Shown: positions 7,343-32,947 of the stretch, in pieces
Position numbering within the stretch: the first letter of the stretch is position 1
How the letters are laid out: each line of letters begins with the position of its first letter
Origin: a virus
Taxonomy: Duplodnaviria > Caudoviricetes
Length of the DNA stretch: 64,000 nt
Direction: 5' to 3' (one strand)
IMG/VR virus record: IMGVR_UViG_3300009037_000004
Span: 32,001 to 96,000 of that record
Notes under the pieces: model-generated
Told to the model about the DNA's origin: nothing
Database searches by the model: none
What the model saw: the letters and a program-made list of their open reading frames with translations, nothing else
Translations under genes and position numbers: made by a program

Positions 7343-8472
7343 GCTATTCAGCGAAGAGAAGTTCCTTCGGACAGCGCGTCCAGGGATACAACACGAGGAG
7401 AAGCGAGAGCTCGGGTGGGGGCAGGGGCGGGGGTCTCAGCATCCGGTGGAGACACCGCTGGGCACCGCCTGTGGGGGTCACCACCCAGGCCATCCTCCTC
7501 CCCGGCAACTACCTCAACATGGAAGGAGAGGAGACCGAGTACTTCCCCTACGTCGATCACTTCGCGGCCCGCTCGAACAGGGGCTTCATCTGCTCGAAGA
7601 AGTACCAGATCGTGGACGGGGAACTGACGAGCGTGGGCGGCAAGTGCCTGGGGTGCAAGGAGAGGGAAGGGGGTGCCGATGACATCCGCTGGAGCATGAA
7701 GCACGCCTTCAACGTCCTCCACCTCGCCTGGTACCACAAGGTTCCGGCCGAAGACGAACACGGCCGGCCCATCAAATACACGAAGGGGAAGCGCACGGGC
7801 GAGCAGATCATGAACGATGAGATCTGCGAAGGTCGCCGCTGCCCCCACTGCGCCGCCAAGCTCGACAAGTTCTTCGGCCGCAAGGTCCACTGGAGCATCG
7901 GCTCCGGTCACATGAGCGAACTCGCGGGCATCGTGTCCGAGATCGAGAAGGACTGCAAGAGCTGCGGGGAAGGCCGCCTGGAGACTGTCTCCTACGAGTG
8001 CGACAAGTGTGGCTTCCCGCTCATCGACATGCAGACCACGGAGATGAAGCTGGAGGACATCCTCAGCTTCGTGGCCCGCAAGCGCGAGTGCCCCAAGTGC
8101 GGCAACGTCGCGATCCCCCTCAAGCAGGTGGAGTGTGACCACTGCCAGGACCCCAAGCCGCTGTCGATCTTCGACTGCGAGCTGGAGATCAAGCGCCAGG
8201 GTGAGGGCACCAACTCGACCGTCCAGGTTCCCAGATGGACCGCCATCGACATCATGTCCTACAAGGATAAGGTCGATGACTTCGAGGAGAAGATCAAGCC
8301 GTTCGTCTTCAAGAAGATCTTCTGCTCCGATCCGTTCGACATCCAGGCGAAGATCCTGAAGATCAAGAACCCCTGGGGCTCCGAGAATCCCGATGCGGAC
8401 AAGCACGCGAAGGGGTACGAAGAGGGCGAAGGAGGAGAGGGAGAAGAGGGCGACCCCGACTACAACGAGTAG
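7339..8472 (+). CDS. Putative single-stranded DNA-binding protein with several Zn ribbons and an acidic tail
   Basis: Lies between primase and polymerase; IKRQGEGTNST resembles gp32-like SSBs; six CxxC pairs; C-terminus EEGEGGEGEEGDPDYNE. Confidence 0.6.
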   Translation: MSYSAKRSSFGQRVQGYNTRRSESSGGGRGGGLSIRWRHRWAPPVGVTTQAILLPGNYLNMEGEETEYFPYVDHFAARSNRGFICSKKYQIVDGELTSVGGKCLGCKEREGGADDIRWSMKHAFNVLHLAWYHKVPAEDEHGRPIKYTKGKRTGEQIMNDEICEGRRCPHCAAKLDKFFGRKVHWSIGSGHMSELAGIVSEIEKDCKSCGEGRLETVSYECDKCGFPLIDMQTTEMKLEDILSFVARKRECPKCGNVAIPLKQVECDHCQDPKPLSIFDCELEIKRQGEGTNSTVQVPRWTAIDIMSYKDKVDDFEEKIKPFVFKKIFCSDPFDIQAKILKIKNPWGSENPDADKHAKGYEEGEGGEGEEGDPDYNE

Positions 8473-8478
8473 CCTGAC

Positions 8479-8516
8479 AGACACCCCCTCCTGTGGCGGG
8501 AGGGGGTGTCTCTTTT
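8479..8516 (+). terminator. Intrinsic terminator-like hairpin after the SSB-like gene
   Basis: 13-bp stem AGACACCCCCTCC / GGAGGGGGTGTCT, 7-nt loop, followed by CTTTT. Confidence 0.75.
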
Positions 8517-8527
8517 GTGGAGGACCA

Positions 8528-10510
8528 ATGGGAACCCAGTACGTTCCACCCGTCACCTGGGTGGATGACCCCGAATCGTTCATGCAGTTTGCCCGGCATG
8601 TCCAGGACACTCGGGAGTGCGCGGTGGACACGGAGACCACTGGACTCAATCGTGCCCGGGACCACGTCAAGTTCTGGTCAGCTTGCCCCGACATCAACTC
8701 CCGCTACTGCCTCTCCCGCGATATGCTCGAGCTGTTCGGGCAAGAGCTTGCCTCCGACCTGGACCTCACCTGGTATTTCACCAACCAGAACTTCGACTTC
8801 GCGATGATGGAGAACTCCGGCATCAAGGCGCCCAAGGGAGACTGCTACGATACCCTGGCCATGGACTGGCTGGTGGACGAGAACCGACAGGGCCGTCACG
8901 GTCTAAAAGAGACGGCTCTCGATCACCTCGGTCTGAACATGCGGGAGTTCAAGGAAGCCTTCAAAGGTCGAAAGAAGGGGGAGTCGATCCCAGAACGGCT
9001 TGACCGGGCCATGCGGGAAGACCCGGACTCGGCCAAATCCTACGCGGCCCTGGATGCCTGGGCTACCTTCCGCGTGTACCACTGTCTCAAGGAGAAGCTT
9101 GAGCAGCTCCACAGCATGGACGGCATGTGCCTCTGGGACTACTTCCAGGAGGTGGAGATGCCGTTCACCCGCGTGCTCTACAACTGCTGCCGCCGCGGCG
9201 TCATGGTGGACATCGGCTACCTGACCGAACTCAGCCCGAAGATCGAGGTCGAGATGGTAGCTATCCAGAAGACGATCAACAGGATCGCGGGCAGGGAAGT
9301 TAACATCAGGAGTACCCCACAGCTCCGCGATCTGTTCTTCGACACGCTCGGGTTGAAGCCCATCAAGATGACGACTGGCGGAGACAGTGGGAACAGGCAG
9401 CCCTCCACGGATGAAAGCTGCTTGCAGATCTGGGCAGATCAGGGTGTGGAAGTCGCAGTCTTGATGCTCCAGTACCGCGAGCTGGCCAAGATGAAAGGCA
9501 CCTACGTGGACGGGCTGAGAAAGTGGGTGGACGACGACTACCGGATTCACCCCACGCTCACCCAGCACGTCACGGTCACCGGACGTCTTTCGTCCGTGGA
9601 CCCCAACCTCCAGAACATCCCCCGGCCGGATGGCGACAAGTTCGGCATCCGCACGGCCTTCATACCCAAAGACAAGCACGCCCTCCTGGTGGTGGACTAC
9701 GAGCAGCTCGAGATGCGGCTCATGGCTCACTTCTCCCAGGACCCCAACATGATCGACGTCATCCGCAAAGGCTGGGACATCCACGCCGGGACTGGCTCGC
9801 TCATGTACAACTACGACTACGATGCGATCATCGCCGCCGGCAAGAAGAAGAAATCGAATGCCAAGGCGAAGGAACAGGGCCTGCCCTACACGGAACTGAC
9901 CGAGCTCGAGAAGGGCATGATCTTCGCCAGGCAAGCCGCCAAGACTATCGGCTTCGGATTGAACTACGGCGAGGGGCCCCAGAAGCTGGGCAAGTCGCTG
10001 GGAGTGGGAGTGGAGGAAGCCAAGGCGCTGATCCAGAAGTACTTCGCGCCCTACCCCCGAGTCCGGGAGTTCATCGAGGGCGTCCACAACTACATCCTCG
10101 ACCACGCGATGGTCGAAACCATCCTGGGCCGTCCGCGTCGCTTCCACGAACTCCCCGCCATCGGGGAGCTGCTGGACAAGATGAGTCGGTGGAAGCTCCC
10201 CGGCTCGGCCAGGAAGAACCTCGCCCAAGCAGAACGCCAGAGCGTCAACTCGGTCATCCAGGGTTCTGCGGCAGATGTGGCGAAGATGGCTATGATCAAG
10301 TGCGAGTTCGACCACCGACTTCGGAATCTCGGAGTCGAGATGCTCCTCCAGGTCCACGATGAACTACTCTTCGAAGTCCCGGAAGAGAACGTGGACGAGG
10401 CCAAGAAAATCGTTCTGGAGCTGATGGAACACCCGTTCGGTGACGACCTCCTGGTCCCACTGAATGCGGATGCTGGAGTCGGGTTTTCTTGGGCAACGGC
10501 GAAGGCGTAG
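8528..10510 (+). CDS. polA: DNA polymerase family A (3'-5' exonuclease plus polymerase; no 5'-3' exonuclease)
   Basis: ExoI DTETTG, TGRLSSVDPNLQNIP, motif A DYEQLEMR, motif B RQAAKTIGFGLNYG, motif C QVHDELL; GGAGG RBS before ATG 8528. Confidence 0.97.
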   Translation: MGTQYVPPVTWVDDPESFMQFARHVQDTRECAVDTETTGLNRARDHVKFWSACPDINSRYCLSRDMLELFGQELASDLDLTWYFTNQNFDFAMMENSGIKAPKGDCYDTLAMDWLVDENRQGRHGLKETALDHLGLNMREFKEAFKGRKKGESIPERLDRAMREDPDSAKSYAALDAWATFRVYHCLKEKLEQLHSMDGMCLWDYFQEVEMPFTRVLYNCCRRGVMVDIGYLTELSPKIEVEMVAIQKTINRIAGREVNIRSTPQLRDLFFDTLGLKPIKMTTGGDSGNRQPSTDESCLQIWADQGVEVAVLMLQYRELAKMKGTYVDGLRKWVDDDYRIHPTLTQHVTVTGRLSSVDPNLQNIPRPDGDKFGIRTAFIPKDKHALLVVDYEQLEMRLMAHFSQDPNMIDVIRKGWDIHAGTGSLMYNYDYDAIIAAGKKKKSNAKAKEQGLPYTELTELEKGMIFARQAAKTIGFGLNYGEGPQKLGKSLGVGVEEAKALIQKYFAPYPRVREFIEGVHNYILDHAMVETILGRPRRFHELPAIGELLDKMSRWKLPGSARKNLAQAERQSVNSVIQGSAADVAKMAMIKCEFDHRLRNLGVEMLLQVHDELLFEVPEENVDEAKKIVLELMEHPFGDDLLVPLNADAGVGFSWATAKA

Positions 10511-15364: not shown

Positions 15365-15923
15365 GAAACTCACGAAGGAAGACCTGGATGGTATGAGCCG
15401 AGTCCAACTCCGCCGCGCGGCCATGGAAGTGTTGGGCATGGGCAACAAGGAAGCGACCGAGATGAACAGCGCGGACCTCAAGGCCAAGATCCTGGAGGCC
15501 CAGGAAGGCGGGGGAAAGAAGAAGGGTAAGGCCGCGCCGCCCCCGGAGGAGCCGAAGAAGGGCAGGGGCAAGCCCGCCCCGGAACCCGAGCCGGAAGAAG
15601 AACCCGAGCCGGAGCCCGAAGAGGAGGCTCCGCCCCCGAAGGGCAAGGTCGCTGCGTCGTCCGAAACCAGGACGCTGACTGAGATCTTGAAGGTCGTCCA
15701 TGCGGTCGGGAAGGCCGTGGACGAGCTCGCCCAGACCGTGGCGGAACGCCTGGACACGCAGGACGAGCACCTGGTCGAGATCGAGCGGAAACTCTTCCAC
15801 CAGCTCGGACTCACCGAGAACATCTTCAAGGGTGTGAGCGAGCCGGACGAGTTCGAGCCCAGGATCGAGGCGCTGGAGGACGAGTGGAAGAAGCAGGCGG
15901 AGGGCGAGGAGGGAAACGACTAG
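15357..15923 (+). CDS. Protein with a Rho-N/SAP-like helical N-domain, Pro/Glu linker and coiled coil
   Basis: LDGMSRVQLRRAA..LG...ADLKAKIL; PEPEPEEE linker; ends at the slippery site G GGA AAC GAC TAG. Confidence 0.75.
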   Translation: MSEKLTKEDLDGMSRVQLRRAAMEVLGMGNKEATEMNSADLKAKILEAQEGGGKKKGKAAPPPEEPKKGRGKPAPEPEPEEEPEPEPEEEAPPPKGKVAASSETRTLTEILKVVHAVGKAVDELAQTVAERLDTQDEHLVEIERKLFHQLGLTENIFKGVSEPDEFEPRIEALEDEWKKQAEGEEGND

Positions 15924-16114
15924 CAGGGGGCTCTACCCTGGGTCCCCGCCCAGCTCGTCCGGATGAGACCGTGAACGTGACCGAAGCCTACCTGGCCGAC
16001 CTGACCTTGGACAGCCTCCGGCTGCTAGCTGTCCAGCTCGTTGTGGACATCGACCCGGCCGCCATCGAGGATCGCGAGGAGCTACTCCAGCTCCTCCGAT
16101 CCAACTCCCTCTAG
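15911..16114 (+). other. Putative -1 programmed ribosomal frameshift extension of 15357..15923
   Basis: Heptamer GGGAAAC (15911-15917) in X XXY YYZ phase; 8-bp hairpin at 15926-15947; -1 frame open to TAG 16114, which abuts a terminator. Confidence 0.7.
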
Positions 16115-16131
16115 CCCCTTCGGGGGCTTTT
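16113..16131 (+). terminator. Intrinsic terminator ending the replication operon
   Basis: AGCCCC-TTCG-GGGGCT-TTT with a cUUCGg tetraloop. Confidence 0.85.
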
Positions 16132-16159
16132 CTTAACCTGCAAACGGATCATCCATGCC

Positions 16160-16167
16160 GGTATAAG
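16160..16167 (+). promoter_or_regulatory. Putative phage promoter motif GGTATAAG
   Basis: Intergenic, just after a terminator; a near-identical GGGATAAG at 45795 precedes another isolated + strand ORF. Confidence 0.4.
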
Positions 16168-16174
16168 AAACGTA

Positions 16175-16269
16175 GAGGAAAGAACGCAAGTTCCCCCTCC
16201 TTGAGCTACCCCGATAAGTAGGGGATTGCTGGTGCCAAGCCAGTGATGGCTCGCAGGGCCCCTGCCTGC
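16175..16269 (+). ncRNA. Structured 5' leader or ncRNA candidate (GNRA hairpin, three-way junction, RBS-adjacent hairpin)
   Basis: GAAC-GCAA-GTTC; P1 16203-07/16248-52, P2 16209-12/16221-24, P3 16225-32/16240-47; GCAGG/CCTGC directly before GGAGG. Confidence 0.45.
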
Positions 16270-16280
16270 GGAGGTCACCG

Positions 16281-16586
16281 ATGCTCAAGATCGATCTCTC
16301 GGTGACCCCGAGCAACCCGCTGTACGCGGGCCTTGGGGTCACGGAGGTCGGTGGGCGGGCGAACCTCCCCAACGCGACCAGTGCCGAGGTGATCAACACC
16401 ATTGGCAAGGTCGTGAAGGGGATGGTTGACGCACTGCCCGTGGGCGAGCGTGACGAGGTGGTTCTGACCGGGCCCGCGCCGGTCCAGATCTACCTCGTTG
16501 CGTTTCACGGGGTGGTCCACTGCTTCCGGTCCGTCCGCTACCAGGATGGCCGGGGTGGTGACTGCCTCGTGTCGCAACACGGGTAG
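16281..16586 (+). CDS. Csx3/Crn3-like small protein (ring-nuclease-like candidate)
   Basis: VVLTGPAPVQIY...FH..VH....V.YQD.R.G..LVSQH resembles the Csx3 pattern; GGAGG RBS. Confidence 0.55.
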   Translation: MLKIDLSVTPSNPLYAGLGVTEVGGRANLPNATSAEVINTIGKVVKGMVDALPVGERDEVVLTGPAPVQIYLVAFHGVVHCFRSVRYQDGRGGDCLVSQHG

Positions 16587-16604
16587 CGCCTCCCACCGAC
16601 CTCG

Positions 16605-16636
16605 ACCCAGGCGGCTTGCGACGCCTGGGTTTCTTT
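16605..16636 (+). terminator. Intrinsic terminator at the convergence of the two gene blocks
   Basis: ACCCAGGCG / CGCCTGGGT 9-bp stem followed by TTCTTT. Confidence 0.8.
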
Positions 16637-16645
16637 AGCTAGTAA

Positions 16646-17161
16646 TCACTTGGCGACGTAGGCTACGGCCACGACTGCGACCGTGGTAACAACCACCCCC
16701 ACGACCGCCCCGAAGGTCCAGGAGCGGTACCACGCCCGCTCCTTTGACAGCTCAGTCTGAAGCTGGGTGACCTGCTTCTTGTACGACTCCCGCTGGCTGG
16801 TCCGGAGATCGAGGTCGGCCCGCAAGGACTGGGTGGTGAACTTCACCTCACTCGCCAGCTTCTCCCCGGCCGAGGTCGTCTCCATCCACCGGATGCGCCG
16901 AAGGGCGGTGATGCGAAGGCCGAGCTCCAAGACCCGGTCCTTGTCCAGCAGGATGCCCTCCCAGGGGGCTGGGACACCCAGCTTGAGGGCTACTGAGTCC
17001 TTGGGGTTCAGCCTGGGTACCAGGGCATCCTCCCCAGGCCCCGGACAGGCGTAGGAGGGCTCCTTCTTGGGGTCGGAGTAGTCTTGGGCCAGGCACTGGG
17101 GATTCTGCGCTCTGAGAGGCGCTGGGAGCGCCAGGAGGGCAACTACGAGCAACCACCTCAT
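16646..17161 (-). CDS. Exported coiled-coil protein with a C-terminal TM segment (spanin-like lysis candidate)
   Basis: Signal peptide MRWLLVVALLALPAPLRA; coiled coil; hydrophobic C-terminus FGAVVGVVVTTVAVVAVAYV. Confidence 0.55.
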   Translation of the reverse strand: MRWLLVVALLALPAPLRAQNPQCLAQDYSDPKKEPSYACPGPGEDALVPRLNPKDSVALKLGVPAPWEGILLDKDRVLELGLRITALRRIRWMETTSAGEKLASEVKFTTQSLRADLDLRTSQRESYKKQVTQLQTELSKERAWYRSWTFGAVVGVVVTTVAVVAVAYVAK

Positions 17162-17904
17162 CGGTTCCTCCCCGCCGGGTAGCGACCGGGTAACGACCGG
17201 ATAGCCTCCGACGTCTTATCAAGGAGTTGCAGCTCGTCCAGAAAGGACCGGTAGGAGACCTGGGAGAGCTTCTTGATGGGGCCCCGCTCCTGAGCCAGGG
17301 TCTTCAGCCTCTGGTCGGGCGGCTGGGGGAAGGGAGCAGGAGGGTCAGTTCCCCGCTGGGCGTCGTCCAGGTTCTCCTCCTGGTCCAGCCCGGCCGACCT
17401 CTTGAGCTTGCCCGGCATCTGCCAGGAGACATGAACTCCCCCCGTCCCGGCATTCGGACCGAGATCTGCGTACTCGAATTCCCCCTGAGCTGTCTTCTCA
17501 CGAGGCACGACGTGACCTGTCTTGTGGATCGCACGTAGATTCGGCATGATCCGTGTTCCATCTCCGCCAAAAGCGGAATCATCGAAGTCGCTGACCTTGT
17601 CCTTGCTGACCTTCGGCTCACCCTGCTTCCAAGGGCTGTCGCCTACCGCGTCCCAGTCTTCTGGTCCAGCCGAGTTAGGGAAGTCGGCTCCCTTGATCTT
17701 CCCCGGTCCCTTCTGAAGGATGCGATCCCAATCCTGCATGGAGACGCCTGGGGGTGGACCTGGCTCCGCTTTCTTGATCTTCCCCTTCTTCGGGGCGTGC
17801 TCTGGGAGCGCCTCTTCCGAAGGAGTCTCTCTCTCCCACCTCTTCGCGAGCTCAGGTTTCTGGGAGCGCATCCAGGCTCTCTGGGCCTTTGACTTGAACG
17901 GCAT
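17158..17904 (-). CDS. Phage hypothetical protein (MPFKSKAQR N-terminal motif; degenerate FLDEL tag)
   Basis: MPFKSKAQRAWM...ELAKRWERETP...LPE; SFLDELQLLDKTS near the C-terminus. Confidence 0.7.
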   Translation of the reverse strand: MPFKSKAQRAWMRSQKPELAKRWERETPSEEALPEHAPKKGKIKKAEPGPPPGVSMQDWDRILQKGPGKIKGADFPNSAGPEDWDAVGDSPWKQGEPKVSKDKVSDFDDSAFGGDGTRIMPNLRAIHKTGHVVPREKTAQGEFEYADLGPNAGTGGVHVSWQMPGKLKRSAGLDQEENLDDAQRGTDPPAPFPQPPDQRLKTLAQERGPIKKLSQVSYRSFLDELQLLDKTSEAIRSLPGRYPAGRNR

Positions 17905-17905
17905 G

Positions 17906-18115
17906 CTACTCGTCCTTCCAGATGATCTTCGTCTGCCCGTTGTGGCAGTGCACCTTCTCCAGATGATCCATGCTGCTGTAGAAGACCACGCTAGGAGTGG
18001 AGGAGGTCCAACGAAGAGCTACCGTCCCGTCAGTGAAGACACAGCCCTCGGCTACGATCCCCACACCTGAGACTCCTGAAACATCCGAGAGGCGGTGCAG
18101 GTGGAAGCGTCGCAT
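17906..18115 (-). CDS. Conserved small phage protein
   Basis: F.L.R..DVSGVSG.G.VAEG..F.DG.VALRW...H.H.G.T.I.W pattern. Confidence 0.75.
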   Translation of the reverse strand: MRRFHLHRLSDVSGVSGVGIVAEGCVFTDGTVALRWTSSTPSVVFYSSMDHLEKVHCHNGQTKIIWKDE

Positions 18116-18146
18116 CAGGCACGGTCAGAGATCGCCATCGGATCGG

Positions 18147-18473
18147 TCAGAGTGAATCGATCCATTTCGCCACCTCATCAAGAGGCTTGTCCTTGAGTCC
18201 GTTGAACTGATCCACCTGGTCCTTGGAGGCTTTCTGGAGTCTCTCCCCAGCCTTCTTCACCAGATCGTCCAGCCGGGCCTTGAACTGAGCCATGGCCTCG
18301 TCCTTCGCCTTCATGGCACCGTCCGCGGCCGCATCGGTCGTCCCGCTGGGTAGGAAGGGCTTCTTGCCACCGAAGAAGAGCCACACCAGGATGAGAGAGA
18401 CGATCCAGAGTGGGGCGATCAACCACTTCCAGTTCTTCTTCAGCCACTCCCAAATCTTCTTCAGCGTGCTCAT
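18147..18473 (-). CDS. Membrane-anchored coiled-coil protein (i-spanin-like candidate)
   Basis: MSTLKKIWEWLKKNWKW, one TM segment, helical C-terminus. Confidence 0.55.
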   Translation of the reverse strand: MSTLKKIWEWLKKNWKWLIAPLWIVSLILVWLFFGGKKPFLPSGTTDAAADGAMKAKDEAMAQFKARLDDLVKKAGERLQKASKDQVDQFNGLKDKPLDEVAKWIDSL

Positions 18474-31750: not shown

Positions 31751-32947
31751 CTAGAACTGAACGTGGACCTTGGAGCCATTCCACGGAATGGATATGCCCG
31801 ATATCAAATGGAGGTACTCCCGACTCGCCCCAAAGGGCATCGCCTTAACGTAGTCCTGACCCCCGATCCAGACATCCTTGAGTACCCCACGTCGCTCGAA
31901 TCTACCTGCCGTTGACGCCATGATCGGAATCTCGAACCGGTAGAACTTCCGGCTGAACTGGCTCCACCGACGTAGCACACCTCGAATCCGTACGGCGCTG
32001 CTCCCGTCGTATGGAACTATCGAGGGGATCTCAGGGAAATAGGTCAGCACCGTCGTGTCGTCTGATGACAATGCGCGCATACCGTTTTTCGGAGCATTGG
32101 CATCGTTGTCGCAGTTGTACCCCAGGGCGTAATACGTTGTTCGATCAACCATGCCCGACCACACCATCGCAGGTTTGGGATCAGTACCGACCGGGTAGTT
32201 CGCAGTGAACTCTCCAAAGTACATGATGCCCCAGTAGTTGGTGGTGCGACAGAACCAGCTTATGATCGCACGATTTGTATCCGCCACGGCGAACACGCTA
32301 AATGCAGTCCCAGGATCTCGATAGATGGCCTTGGATGTCGTGTTCCTTGAATCGCTCCAAGCGTCCGTTCCAGCGTTCCATGTAGCCCACGGCCCGATCG
32401 AGATCCAGGGGATGTCCTGGGGCCAGTTGCTCGACTCGATCTTCGTGTGCCAATTTCCGGAAAGACCGGATCCCTTGTAGTCTCCCTGCACCACAGCCCA
32501 GGAGCTGACAGGAGGACGATAAGAAGAACTCCCCTCCCAGAGTCTCCAAGACACTCCCGATTCGGCCAGTGGGATGCCATCCTCGTGGACACCGAATCGG
32601 ATGTCCAGCTCGATGATCTTAGTGGAAATGATCTTCTTGATCCGGTAGATGCCATCCCTGGCGGGCACGGACATCCCGGTGATCGTGATGTACCGGCCGA
32701 TGTCCGAGGAGGTCCAGCTTCGTGCATCCCCGGTCATGTCAAACTGGGCTACCTCGCCCACCACAGATGCTCCGGCAGAGCCCGTGGCGATCGTGGCCGT
32801 CCAACCGCCATCCCCGGTTTTCGAGTCAAACAGGGTCATACCCACGACCTGAGTGAGGAATTCCACCAGCCAGCGGGAGAATGTCTGGCCGTTGTAGTTC
32901 CCATCGGTAGAGACCAAGTAGAGACCATTCTGGAATTTGTCAGCCAT
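31751..32947 (-). CDS. Cassette gene B, putative tail-associated protein
   Basis: Paralogous to 29145..30326. Confidence 0.8.
   Translation of the reverse strand: MADKFQNGLYLVSTDGNYNGQTFSRWLVEFLTQVVGMTLFDSKTGDGGWTATIATGSAGASVVGEVAQFDMTGDARSWTSSDIGRYITITGMSVPARDGIYRIKKIISTKIIELDIRFGVHEDGIPLAESGVSWRLWEGSSSYRPPVSSWAVVQGDYKGSGLSGNWHTKIESSNWPQDIPWISIGPWATWNAGTDAWSDSRNTTSKAIYRDPGTAFSVFAVADTNRAIISWFCRTTNYWGIMYFGEFTANYPVGTDPKPAMVWSGMVDRTTYYALGYNCDNDANAPKNGMRALSSDDTTVLTYFPEIPSIVPYDGSSAVRIRGVLRRWSQFSRKFYRFEIPIMASTAGRFERRGVLKDVWIGGQDYVKAMPFGASREYLHLISGISIPWNGSKVHVQF

Follow-up and report, generated by a model that had tools for sequence, protein, structure and literature searches.

A divergent Csx3-like gene in a cassette of its own on a phage genome: a candidate counter to type III CRISPR signalling

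The locus and its cassette

We analysed 64,000 nucleotides (nt) of phage DNA, referred to below as the window, which correspond to positions 32,001 to 96,000 of the IMG/VR virus record IMGVR_UViG_3300009037_000004 (137,433 bp; estimated completeness 75%). The subject is a + strand open reading frame (ORF) encoding a 101-amino-acid (aa) protein related to the ring nuclease Csx3 (Crn3); we call it the Csx3-like gene. It lies at the meeting point of a + strand and a − strand block of genes (coordinates in Table 1). The + strand block contains a DNA polymerase A-sized ORF, a RecA/UvsX-like protein, a Cas4-like PD-(D/E)XK exonuclease and RusA, and the − strand block encodes membrane and virion proteins as well as proteins of tail-fibre size. 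When ten large late-strand ORFs were annotated with PHROGs, the only matches were one to a tail protein and one to a lysozyme-like virion protein. Our use of the term phage is based mainly on the IMG/VR record, on genes for replication and recombination, and on the tail and lysozyme-like virion matches. The best phage matches of the DNA polymerase were about 32% identical, belonged to phages of unrelated hosts and gave no host inference.

Table 1. Coordinates of the cassette elements and of the Acb5-family gene in the window
Feature	Position	Strand	Properties
Upstream intrinsic terminator	16113-16135	+	6 pairs and T-run in scan; fold -11.7 kcal/mol, z -2.2
Promoter-like bipartite motif	16140-16167	+	GCAAAC, 14 nt, GGTATAAG; unlike the sigma-70 consensus
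Structured 5' leader, three-way junction	16202-16281 (also delimited as 16198-16283)	+	minimum free energy -50.5 kcal/mol, z -3.4
Csx3-like ORF	16281-16586	+	101 aa; ATG is the first start past an in-frame stop
Cassette intrinsic terminator	16604-16638	+	10-bp GC-rich stem, 8-nt loop, -20.5 kcal/mol, z -2.2
Acb5-family gene	17906-18115	-	69 aa; three genes away from the Csx3-like gene, at the late operon's end

A preliminary description of this region, prepared from the letters alone, had noted a 101-aa ORF between two terminators, preceded by a promoter-like motif, and had quoted the core of its product. The ORF and both terminators, each a hairpin followed by a U-run, were located, and the quoted core is identical in the translation. 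A Shine-Dalgarno sequence, GGAGG, stands 6 nt 5' of the ATG. As judged from conservation, the ORF is a genuine gene: 22 homologues with 50-86% identity matched it end to end, 47 cluster representatives were found among 1.8 billion proteins at E ≤ 1e-3, and the alignment of the clade to which the window protein belongs (the window clade) contains 23 invariant columns. An antisense ORF, also of 101 aa (16275-16580, − strand), was rejected as a shadow frame of the Csx3-like gene.

The upstream terminator consists of a 6-bp GC hairpin (16113-16128) followed by UUUUCUU; it ends the early/middle operon and shields the cassette from read-through. The downstream hairpin (16604-16631), followed by UUUCUUU, separates the convergent genes of the two strands. 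It was overlooked by a simple terminator scan and recovered by folding.

A sigma-70 scan at the cassette found no promoter. The GGTATAAG element at 16160-16167 is a copy of GGYATAAG, of which the 137-kb genome has 10 where 2.1 ± 1.4 would be expected (about 5-fold). The bipartite form, a pattern picked post hoc, occurs 8 times against 0.12 expected. Nine of the ten GGYATAAG copies are on the + strand (genome positions 8353, 11596, 23269, 31082, 48160, which is window position 16160, 99459, 102113, 122310 and 122732) and one is on the − strand (133203). The copies lie mostly outside long ORFs and 45-185 nt before a gene start, usually with G(C/A)AA some 20 nt to their 5' side. Two other contigs, L056 and L089, have GGTATAAG ahead of their homologous gene too. 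The promoter-like motif of the preliminary description therefore stands as a recurrent phage-specific motif, over-represented and intergenic, with no match to sigma-70. As a candidate promoter, it could serve an RNA polymerase that is either the phage's own or modified.

Between this motif and the start codon lies a leader whose predicted stability was reached by none of 200 shuffles. The GGAGG (16270-16274) is buried in the stem that closes the junction and in the lowest part of the third hairpin. The same three-way junction was found before the homologous gene of contig L056 (9933-10024). When the two leaders were compared, 7 of 25 pairs were kept via changes on both sides and none of the 25 was broken. 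No Rfam family matched the leader. A covariance model found it as a single copy in this phage and, beyond the window and L056, gave weak matches only (L090, 17 bits; L014, 15 bits). A search of IMG/VR with the hairpin pattern gave no match, and one metagenome sequence that matched it (L092) is without a Csx3-like gene. In L089, which encodes the closest protein relative (86% identity), the leader is absent and 5 nt separate GGTATAAG from the start codon. The two clear examples of the leader suggest translational control of the Csx3-like gene. That the leader is a switch sensing a small molecule such as cyclic oligoadenylate, or sensing the Csx3-like protein via its RNA-binding face, we regard as a long shot.

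The Csx3-like gene forms an autonomous cassette, flanked by terminators and preceded by its own promoter-like motif and by a structured leader. Contigs from two wetland metatranscriptome libraries are 100% identical to the phage over window positions 15761-16300 and 17327-18298. They span the 3' end of the upstream gene, the cassette from 16093 to 16300, a 248-aa late gene and the Acb5-family gene, and they stop short of the body of the Csx3-like ORF. Since these are contigs, and since such libraries can contain DNA, they show neither expression nor silence. The convergent neighbour (16646-17161, − strand) encodes 171 aa, with a signal-like segment at the N-terminus and a hydrophobic helix at the C-terminus, and has no family match; it might be a spanin-like lysis protein.

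Relationship to Csx3/Crn3

As references for Csx3/Crn3 we used Archaeoglobus fulgidus AF1864 (AfCsx3; PDB 3WZG, 3WZI, 6VJG and 6YUD), Methanosarcina mazei Csx3 and the family models PF09620 and TIGR02579. PF09620 had no match in the six-frame translation of the phage. Comparison of the protein with PHROGs gave two chance-level matches only, phmmer against the PDB gave nothing useful, and PDB profile searches with two family alignments gave nothing. All database copies of the protein are named 'hypothetical protein'. Its nearest ESM Atlas clusters carry the automatic name Csx3 family protein, and one of these clusters is 71% viral. We looked for longer or fused versions of the window protein and found none.

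The relationship emerged when family profiles were compared. Pfam Cas_csx3 (PF09620) was matched by 15 of 39 representatives of the wider family, at best with 4.7e-5. We then aligned, by HHalign, the window clade (22 sequences) and the wider family (87 sequences) with a canonical Csx3 set of 20 domains from cyanobacterial genomes, all of which score above the TIGR02579 cut-off. The window clade aligned with a probability of 84% (E 8e-6) and the wider family with a probability of 88% (E 3e-6), over 45 columns with 40% identity. By this comparison of sequences, the Csx3-like protein is homologous to canonical Csx3 over its C-terminal half.

The aligned part contains the active site. In AfCsx3, the absolutely conserved 'H60 face' histidines, a catalytic Asp, an Arg at the scissile phosphate and a His that pins cyclic tetra-adenylate (cA4) have been described (PMC7371418). 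According to HHalign, H76, H80, D89, R91 and H100 of the phage protein align with H57, H60, D69, R71 and H80 of AfCsx3, and their spacing is the same save for one extra residue between the first two His. In the window clade (21 sequences), G64, H76, H80, D89 and H100 do not vary, and position 91 holds R or K throughout; across the family, the five catalytic positions are kept in 68-82 of the 87 members. Of the cA4 contacts S44-G45-R46 and I49 of AfCsx3, S44-G45 and I49 have conservative equivalents in T63-G64 and V68, and R46 is P65. The alignment indicates that the catalytic residues on which Mn-dependent cutting of cA4 by Csx3 depends are retained in the phage protein.

The AlphaFold2 model of the 101-aa protein was of high confidence (predicted local distance difference test, 96; predicted TM-score, 0.85). 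A Foldseek search, a check that the preliminary description had proposed, returned AfCsx3 6yud and 3wzg as the best matches (probability 0.96, E 0.09, TM 0.39-0.50). In VIA, the AfCsx3 chains gave Z 5.9-6.2 with a root-mean-square deviation (rmsd) of 2.0-2.3 Å over 71 of about 100 residues. The chain 6yud_C (Z 6.2, rmsd 2.0 Å, 71 residues, 20% identity) had both the lowest rmsd and the highest identity. Nearly all other best fold matches were SAVED/CARF cyclic-oligonucleotide sensors and ring nucleases, including 9R8S, and this resemblance reached Z 5-7.4 at about 10% identity. The Z-scores by themselves would give the fold class only. The model predicts a fold of the Csx3/CARF/SAVED type.

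Taken together with its relatives described below, the protein belongs to a divergent sister subfamily of Csx3/Crn3. The preliminary description had proposed a Csx3/Crn3-fold protein outside a CRISPR locus on a phage, and this is supported by HHalign, by the weak TIGR02579 match of the protein and the PF09620 matches of its family, by Foldseek and VIA, by the cellular loci and by a phage record in which no cas genes were found. It had also taken the change from Gly-Arg to Gly-Pro in the core as a hint of binding without catalysis. That part was not supported: Pro is the majority residue at this position (58 of 87 family members, including some CRISPR-linked ones), and the His/His/Asp/Arg-Lys/His set is invariant in the phage clade.

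Viral and cellular relatives

The clade nearest to the window protein is viral. It comprises the phage of the window, represented by contigs of several samples, the contigs L056 and L057, and the IMG/VR contigs L058 and L059. L056 encodes a homologue with 57% identity together with HNH, SLT, RNase HII and tRNA genes, and L057 carries many small ORFs, SSB and NADAR. In tblastn searches with the protein, no homologue was found in 50,697 GenBank phage records and no match in the PLSDB plasmids. The 137-kb phage record itself contains no match to Cas10, RAMP or SMODS/CD-NTase proteins.

Acb5 is a phage enzyme that cleaves cyclic GMP-AMP and so counters the cyclic-oligonucleotide-based antiphage signalling system (CBASS). 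The Acb5-family gene of the window (Table 1) was identified by a precomputed Pfam match (PF26761) on three contig copies and by phrog_7499 at E 4e-24; its product aligns without gaps, at 58% identity and E 2e-32, with a homologue in Table S5 of the Acb5 paper. An Arg close to the N-terminus, Trp36 and His56/58 are found at about the positions of R10, W38 and H61 of Acb5. This neighbour indicates that the region deals with nucleotide immune signals. In L056, a 176-aa protein with an Acb2/Tad1-hairpin Pfam match is encoded two genes from the Csx3-like gene (8113-8643, − strand), adjoining the HNH endonuclease and tRNA genes. Two phages, the one of the window with Acb5 and that of L056 with an Acb2/Tad1-like gene, therefore pair the Csx3-like gene with different anti-signalling genes.

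Relatives are also encoded at 44 loci in GTDB genomes. When the 8-kb flanks were searched by tblastn with Cas proteins from the relatives' loci, at least 18 of the 44 loci contained cas genes. In a metagenome-assembled genome (MAG) of the Chitinophagales (L048), the genes encode Cas10, RAMPs, Csx19, a RAMP, an MJ1674-type CARF protein, the homologue, Cas6, Cas1 fused to reverse transcriptase (RT-Cas1) and Cas2. In 'Candidatus Acididesulfobacter' (L054), the homologue directly precedes Cas6, Cas10, RAMPs, Csx19, a RAMP and Card1, and in a Marinamargulisbacteria MAG (L055) it stands between a Cas_APE2256 CARF protein and Cas6-Cas1-Cas2. The family is linked to type III CRISPR-Cas loci, where it lies next to CARF effectors of the cA4 type. 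Five genomes that encode a relative yielded no canonical Csx3.

A second group of relatives comes mostly from Patescibacteria MAGs of 0.7-1.3 Mb, in which Cas10 was not found. In two of these (L087, 6659-8297; L052, 8899-11280), the Csx3-like gene is accompanied by genes for a regulator of the TrmB type, for a radical SAM protein and for a protein of 159 aa that matches SAVED weakly. This conserved cellular neighbourhood may be a small CRISPR-independent nucleotide-signalling module.

In a family tree rooted on the Csx3-like group of L043-L046, the CRISPR-linked lineages are basal and the phage clade is apical, with weak support. The tree rests on few columns and does not settle the direction of transfer, and we claim no donor. 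The proteins of L043, L045 and L046 (near 7872-8150) are 79-92 aa long and are encoded near Cas6, RAMP and Cas10 genes; they score 22-27 bits with TIGR02579, also below its cut-off, have S-P-x in place of D-P-R and make up a further Csx3-like group without annotation in type III loci. A CRISPR-linked subclade (L027, L032, L036, L041, L042 and relatives) has N-E-M at the D-G-R of Csx3 and the phage clade, where the catalytic Asp and the Arg for phosphate binding stand, and keeps the three His; its chemistry may be different.

Several relatives have an altered architecture. P0058 (214 aa) and P0064 (205 aa) consist of tandem Csx3-like domains in which the Gly and the D-G-R face are kept and the three His are lost; they may be single-chain versions that only bind, as sensors or sponges. 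These natural tandem forms also hint, indirectly, at a homodimer that would tetramerise around cA4. In P0038 (225 aa) a Csx3-like domain is fused to pentapeptide repeats, and in the viral contig L059 (5344-6288) the Csx3-like gene is immediately 3' of a separate pentapeptide-repeat gene, so that the pairing with this DNA-mimic-type fold is recurrent. A protein of 5165 aa (P0068) matched query residues 11-54 in 37 stretches at a borderline E of 9.7e-4, and is probably a repeat of unrelated origin.

Possible function and significance

We consider it reasonably probable that the Csx3-like protein cleaves cA4 as Csx3 does and blocks type III CRISPR during infection. In this mechanism, dimers of the protein would sandwich cA4 head to tail and would cut it to linear products with Mn2+, as Csx3 does. 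The signal made by Cas10 would be removed before CARF effectors, for example Csx1, Can2 or Card1, switch on, and the protein would act as an anti-type III CRISPR protein.

A number of observations weigh against this. The protein has no Pfam match even at E 10, and TIGR02579, its sole NCBIfam match (residues 54-100, E 0.038), gave 14.3 bits against a curated cut-off of 55.4, which is below the family threshold. The profile alignment with canonical Csx3 is limited to the C-terminal 45 residues. Within it, the second His is shifted by one residue (H-x3-H versus H-x2-H of Csx3), Pro65 stands where Csx3 has the cA4-contacting Arg46, and in the window clade Gln69 takes the place of the Trp in P-I-W. 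VIA scores of Z 6-7 are in the range that the tool calls 'middling', and SAVED and CARF domains equal the scores of Csx3. Finally, many close relatives are found in Patescibacteria whose genomes yielded no Cas10, so the family works outside CRISPR too. As to the Arg46 position, the invariant R26 of the N-terminal G-G-R motif might stand in for the missing residue.

Because of Pro65 and Gln69, the substrate or the kinetics may differ from those of Csx3. An enzyme of the same fold could be a ring nuclease or phosphodiesterase for cyclic tri-adenylate (cA3), cyclic hexa-adenylate (cA6) or the di- and tri-nucleotides of CBASS, and other or broader systems would then be countered. The two substitutions in the window clade fit this alternative, as do the best structural Z-scores, which were to the SAVED domains of the CBASS effectors Cap5 and Cap4, the anti-CBASS type of the phage neighbours, and the close relatives that lie beside a small SAVED-like protein in genomes where Cas10 was not found. 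Ring nucleases of broad spectrum, among them Crn4 and Csx15, have been described. However, cyclic dinucleotides are already covered by Acb5 in this phage, the relatives linked to CRISPR occur together with effectors of the cA4 type, for example Card1, D89 and R91, which position the scissile phosphate, are kept, and the characterised Csx3 is specific for cA4 and does not cleave cA6 (PMC7371418). On balance we regard a different substrate as unlikely.

A protein that does not cut at all could act as a sponge, sequestering the cyclic oligonucleotide in head-to-tail stacks. Csx15 and Csx3 both stack on cA4, and binding-only forms appear to exist, given that the tandem proteins P0058 and P0064 lack the three His and keep the Gly and D-G-R; the Gly-Pro point raised in the preliminary description was in the same direction. 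Nevertheless, Pro65 is the family norm and no special loss, and all residues for Csx3 catalysis are invariant in the window clade, which would be unexpected for a pure sponge. We judge this possibility distinctly improbable.

A function outside immune signalling, in RNA binding or trimming or in the regulation of phage gene expression, appears highly improbable: the first description of Csx3 was as a deadenylase, RNA is bound and cut by AfCsx3 in vitro (PMC7371418), the leader is unusually structured with A-rich loops and many homologues lie outside CRISPR loci, but the action of Csx3 on RNA is today interpreted as a side reaction of an enzyme that degrades cA4 (PMC7371418), and the contexts observed, cas loci and phage anti-signalling genes, all indicate nucleotide signalling.

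The Csx3-like protein compares with known systems as follows. Like Csx3/Crn3, it is a single domain of about 100 aa with the core hh-T/S-G-x-x-P-h-x-h-Y ... H ... H ... Y-D-x-R ... H. Unlike Csx3, it has an N-terminal half that does not align in sequence and contains an invariant G-G-R motif of its own, and it is encoded by a phage, in a cas-free record and in its own promoter-leader-terminator cassette. Its proposed role, that of a small stand-alone viral destroyer of cA4, is shared with AcrIII-1/Crn2 (DUF1874), to which it is unrelated in fold and sequence: there was no DUF1874 match in Pfam and no DUF1874 structure among the fold matches listed. AcrIII-1 is metal-independent and gives cyclic-phosphate products, whereas the chemistry of Csx3 is Mn-dependent, with an active site common to two dimers. 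AcrIII-2 degrades cA4 and stacks head to tail. The Csx3-like protein resembles AcrIII-2 (PDB 9R8S) in being viral and in having a fold of the CARF/SAVED-like class (model match Z 5.4-5.5). It differs from the two-lobed SAVED architecture of AcrIII-2 (about 235 aa) as a single 101-aa domain with Csx3-specific catalytic residues, and from SAVED/CARF sensors in general as a single domain that is not two-lobed and has no fused effector. Like Acb5 and Acb1/Acb2/Tad1, it would be one of the small phage genes that remove nucleotide immune signals, in their case those of CBASS and Thoeris; unlike it, those proteins act on cyclic di- or tri-nucleotides or derivatives of ADP-ribose, and they show no kinship with it in sequence or fold.

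The accessible part of the literature counts eight extrinsic ring-nuclease families, and names as virus-encoded AcrIII-1, AcrIII-2 and a few copies of Csx16/Csx20; in that part, no published description of a phage Csx3/Crn3 was found. A 2025 survey of 28,114 phage genomes contained no Crn3 (PMC12409355). The Csx3-like gene represents a known enzyme family in a divergent form, placed in a known viral strategy for which we found no earlier report of the Csx3 family.

If the protein is active, viral enzymes that counter type III CRISPR would gain a third structural class, Mn-dependent and cooperative, with an active site that dimers share. If the leader were a switch, the ring nuclease would be made only when, or only as much as, the alarm of the host requires, and no RNA sensor connected with the signalling of type III CRISPR would precede this leader. 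The pairing with Acb5 or Acb2/Tad1-like genes suggests anti-signalling neighbourhoods that could be mined for counter-defence genes. A sizeable Csx3-like subfamily escapes current models and bears only the label 'hypothetical protein', also where it lies in type III CRISPR loci or in Patescibacteria; surveys of the frequency of off-switches in type III systems, and of the frequency with which phages disarm these systems, would therefore undercount.

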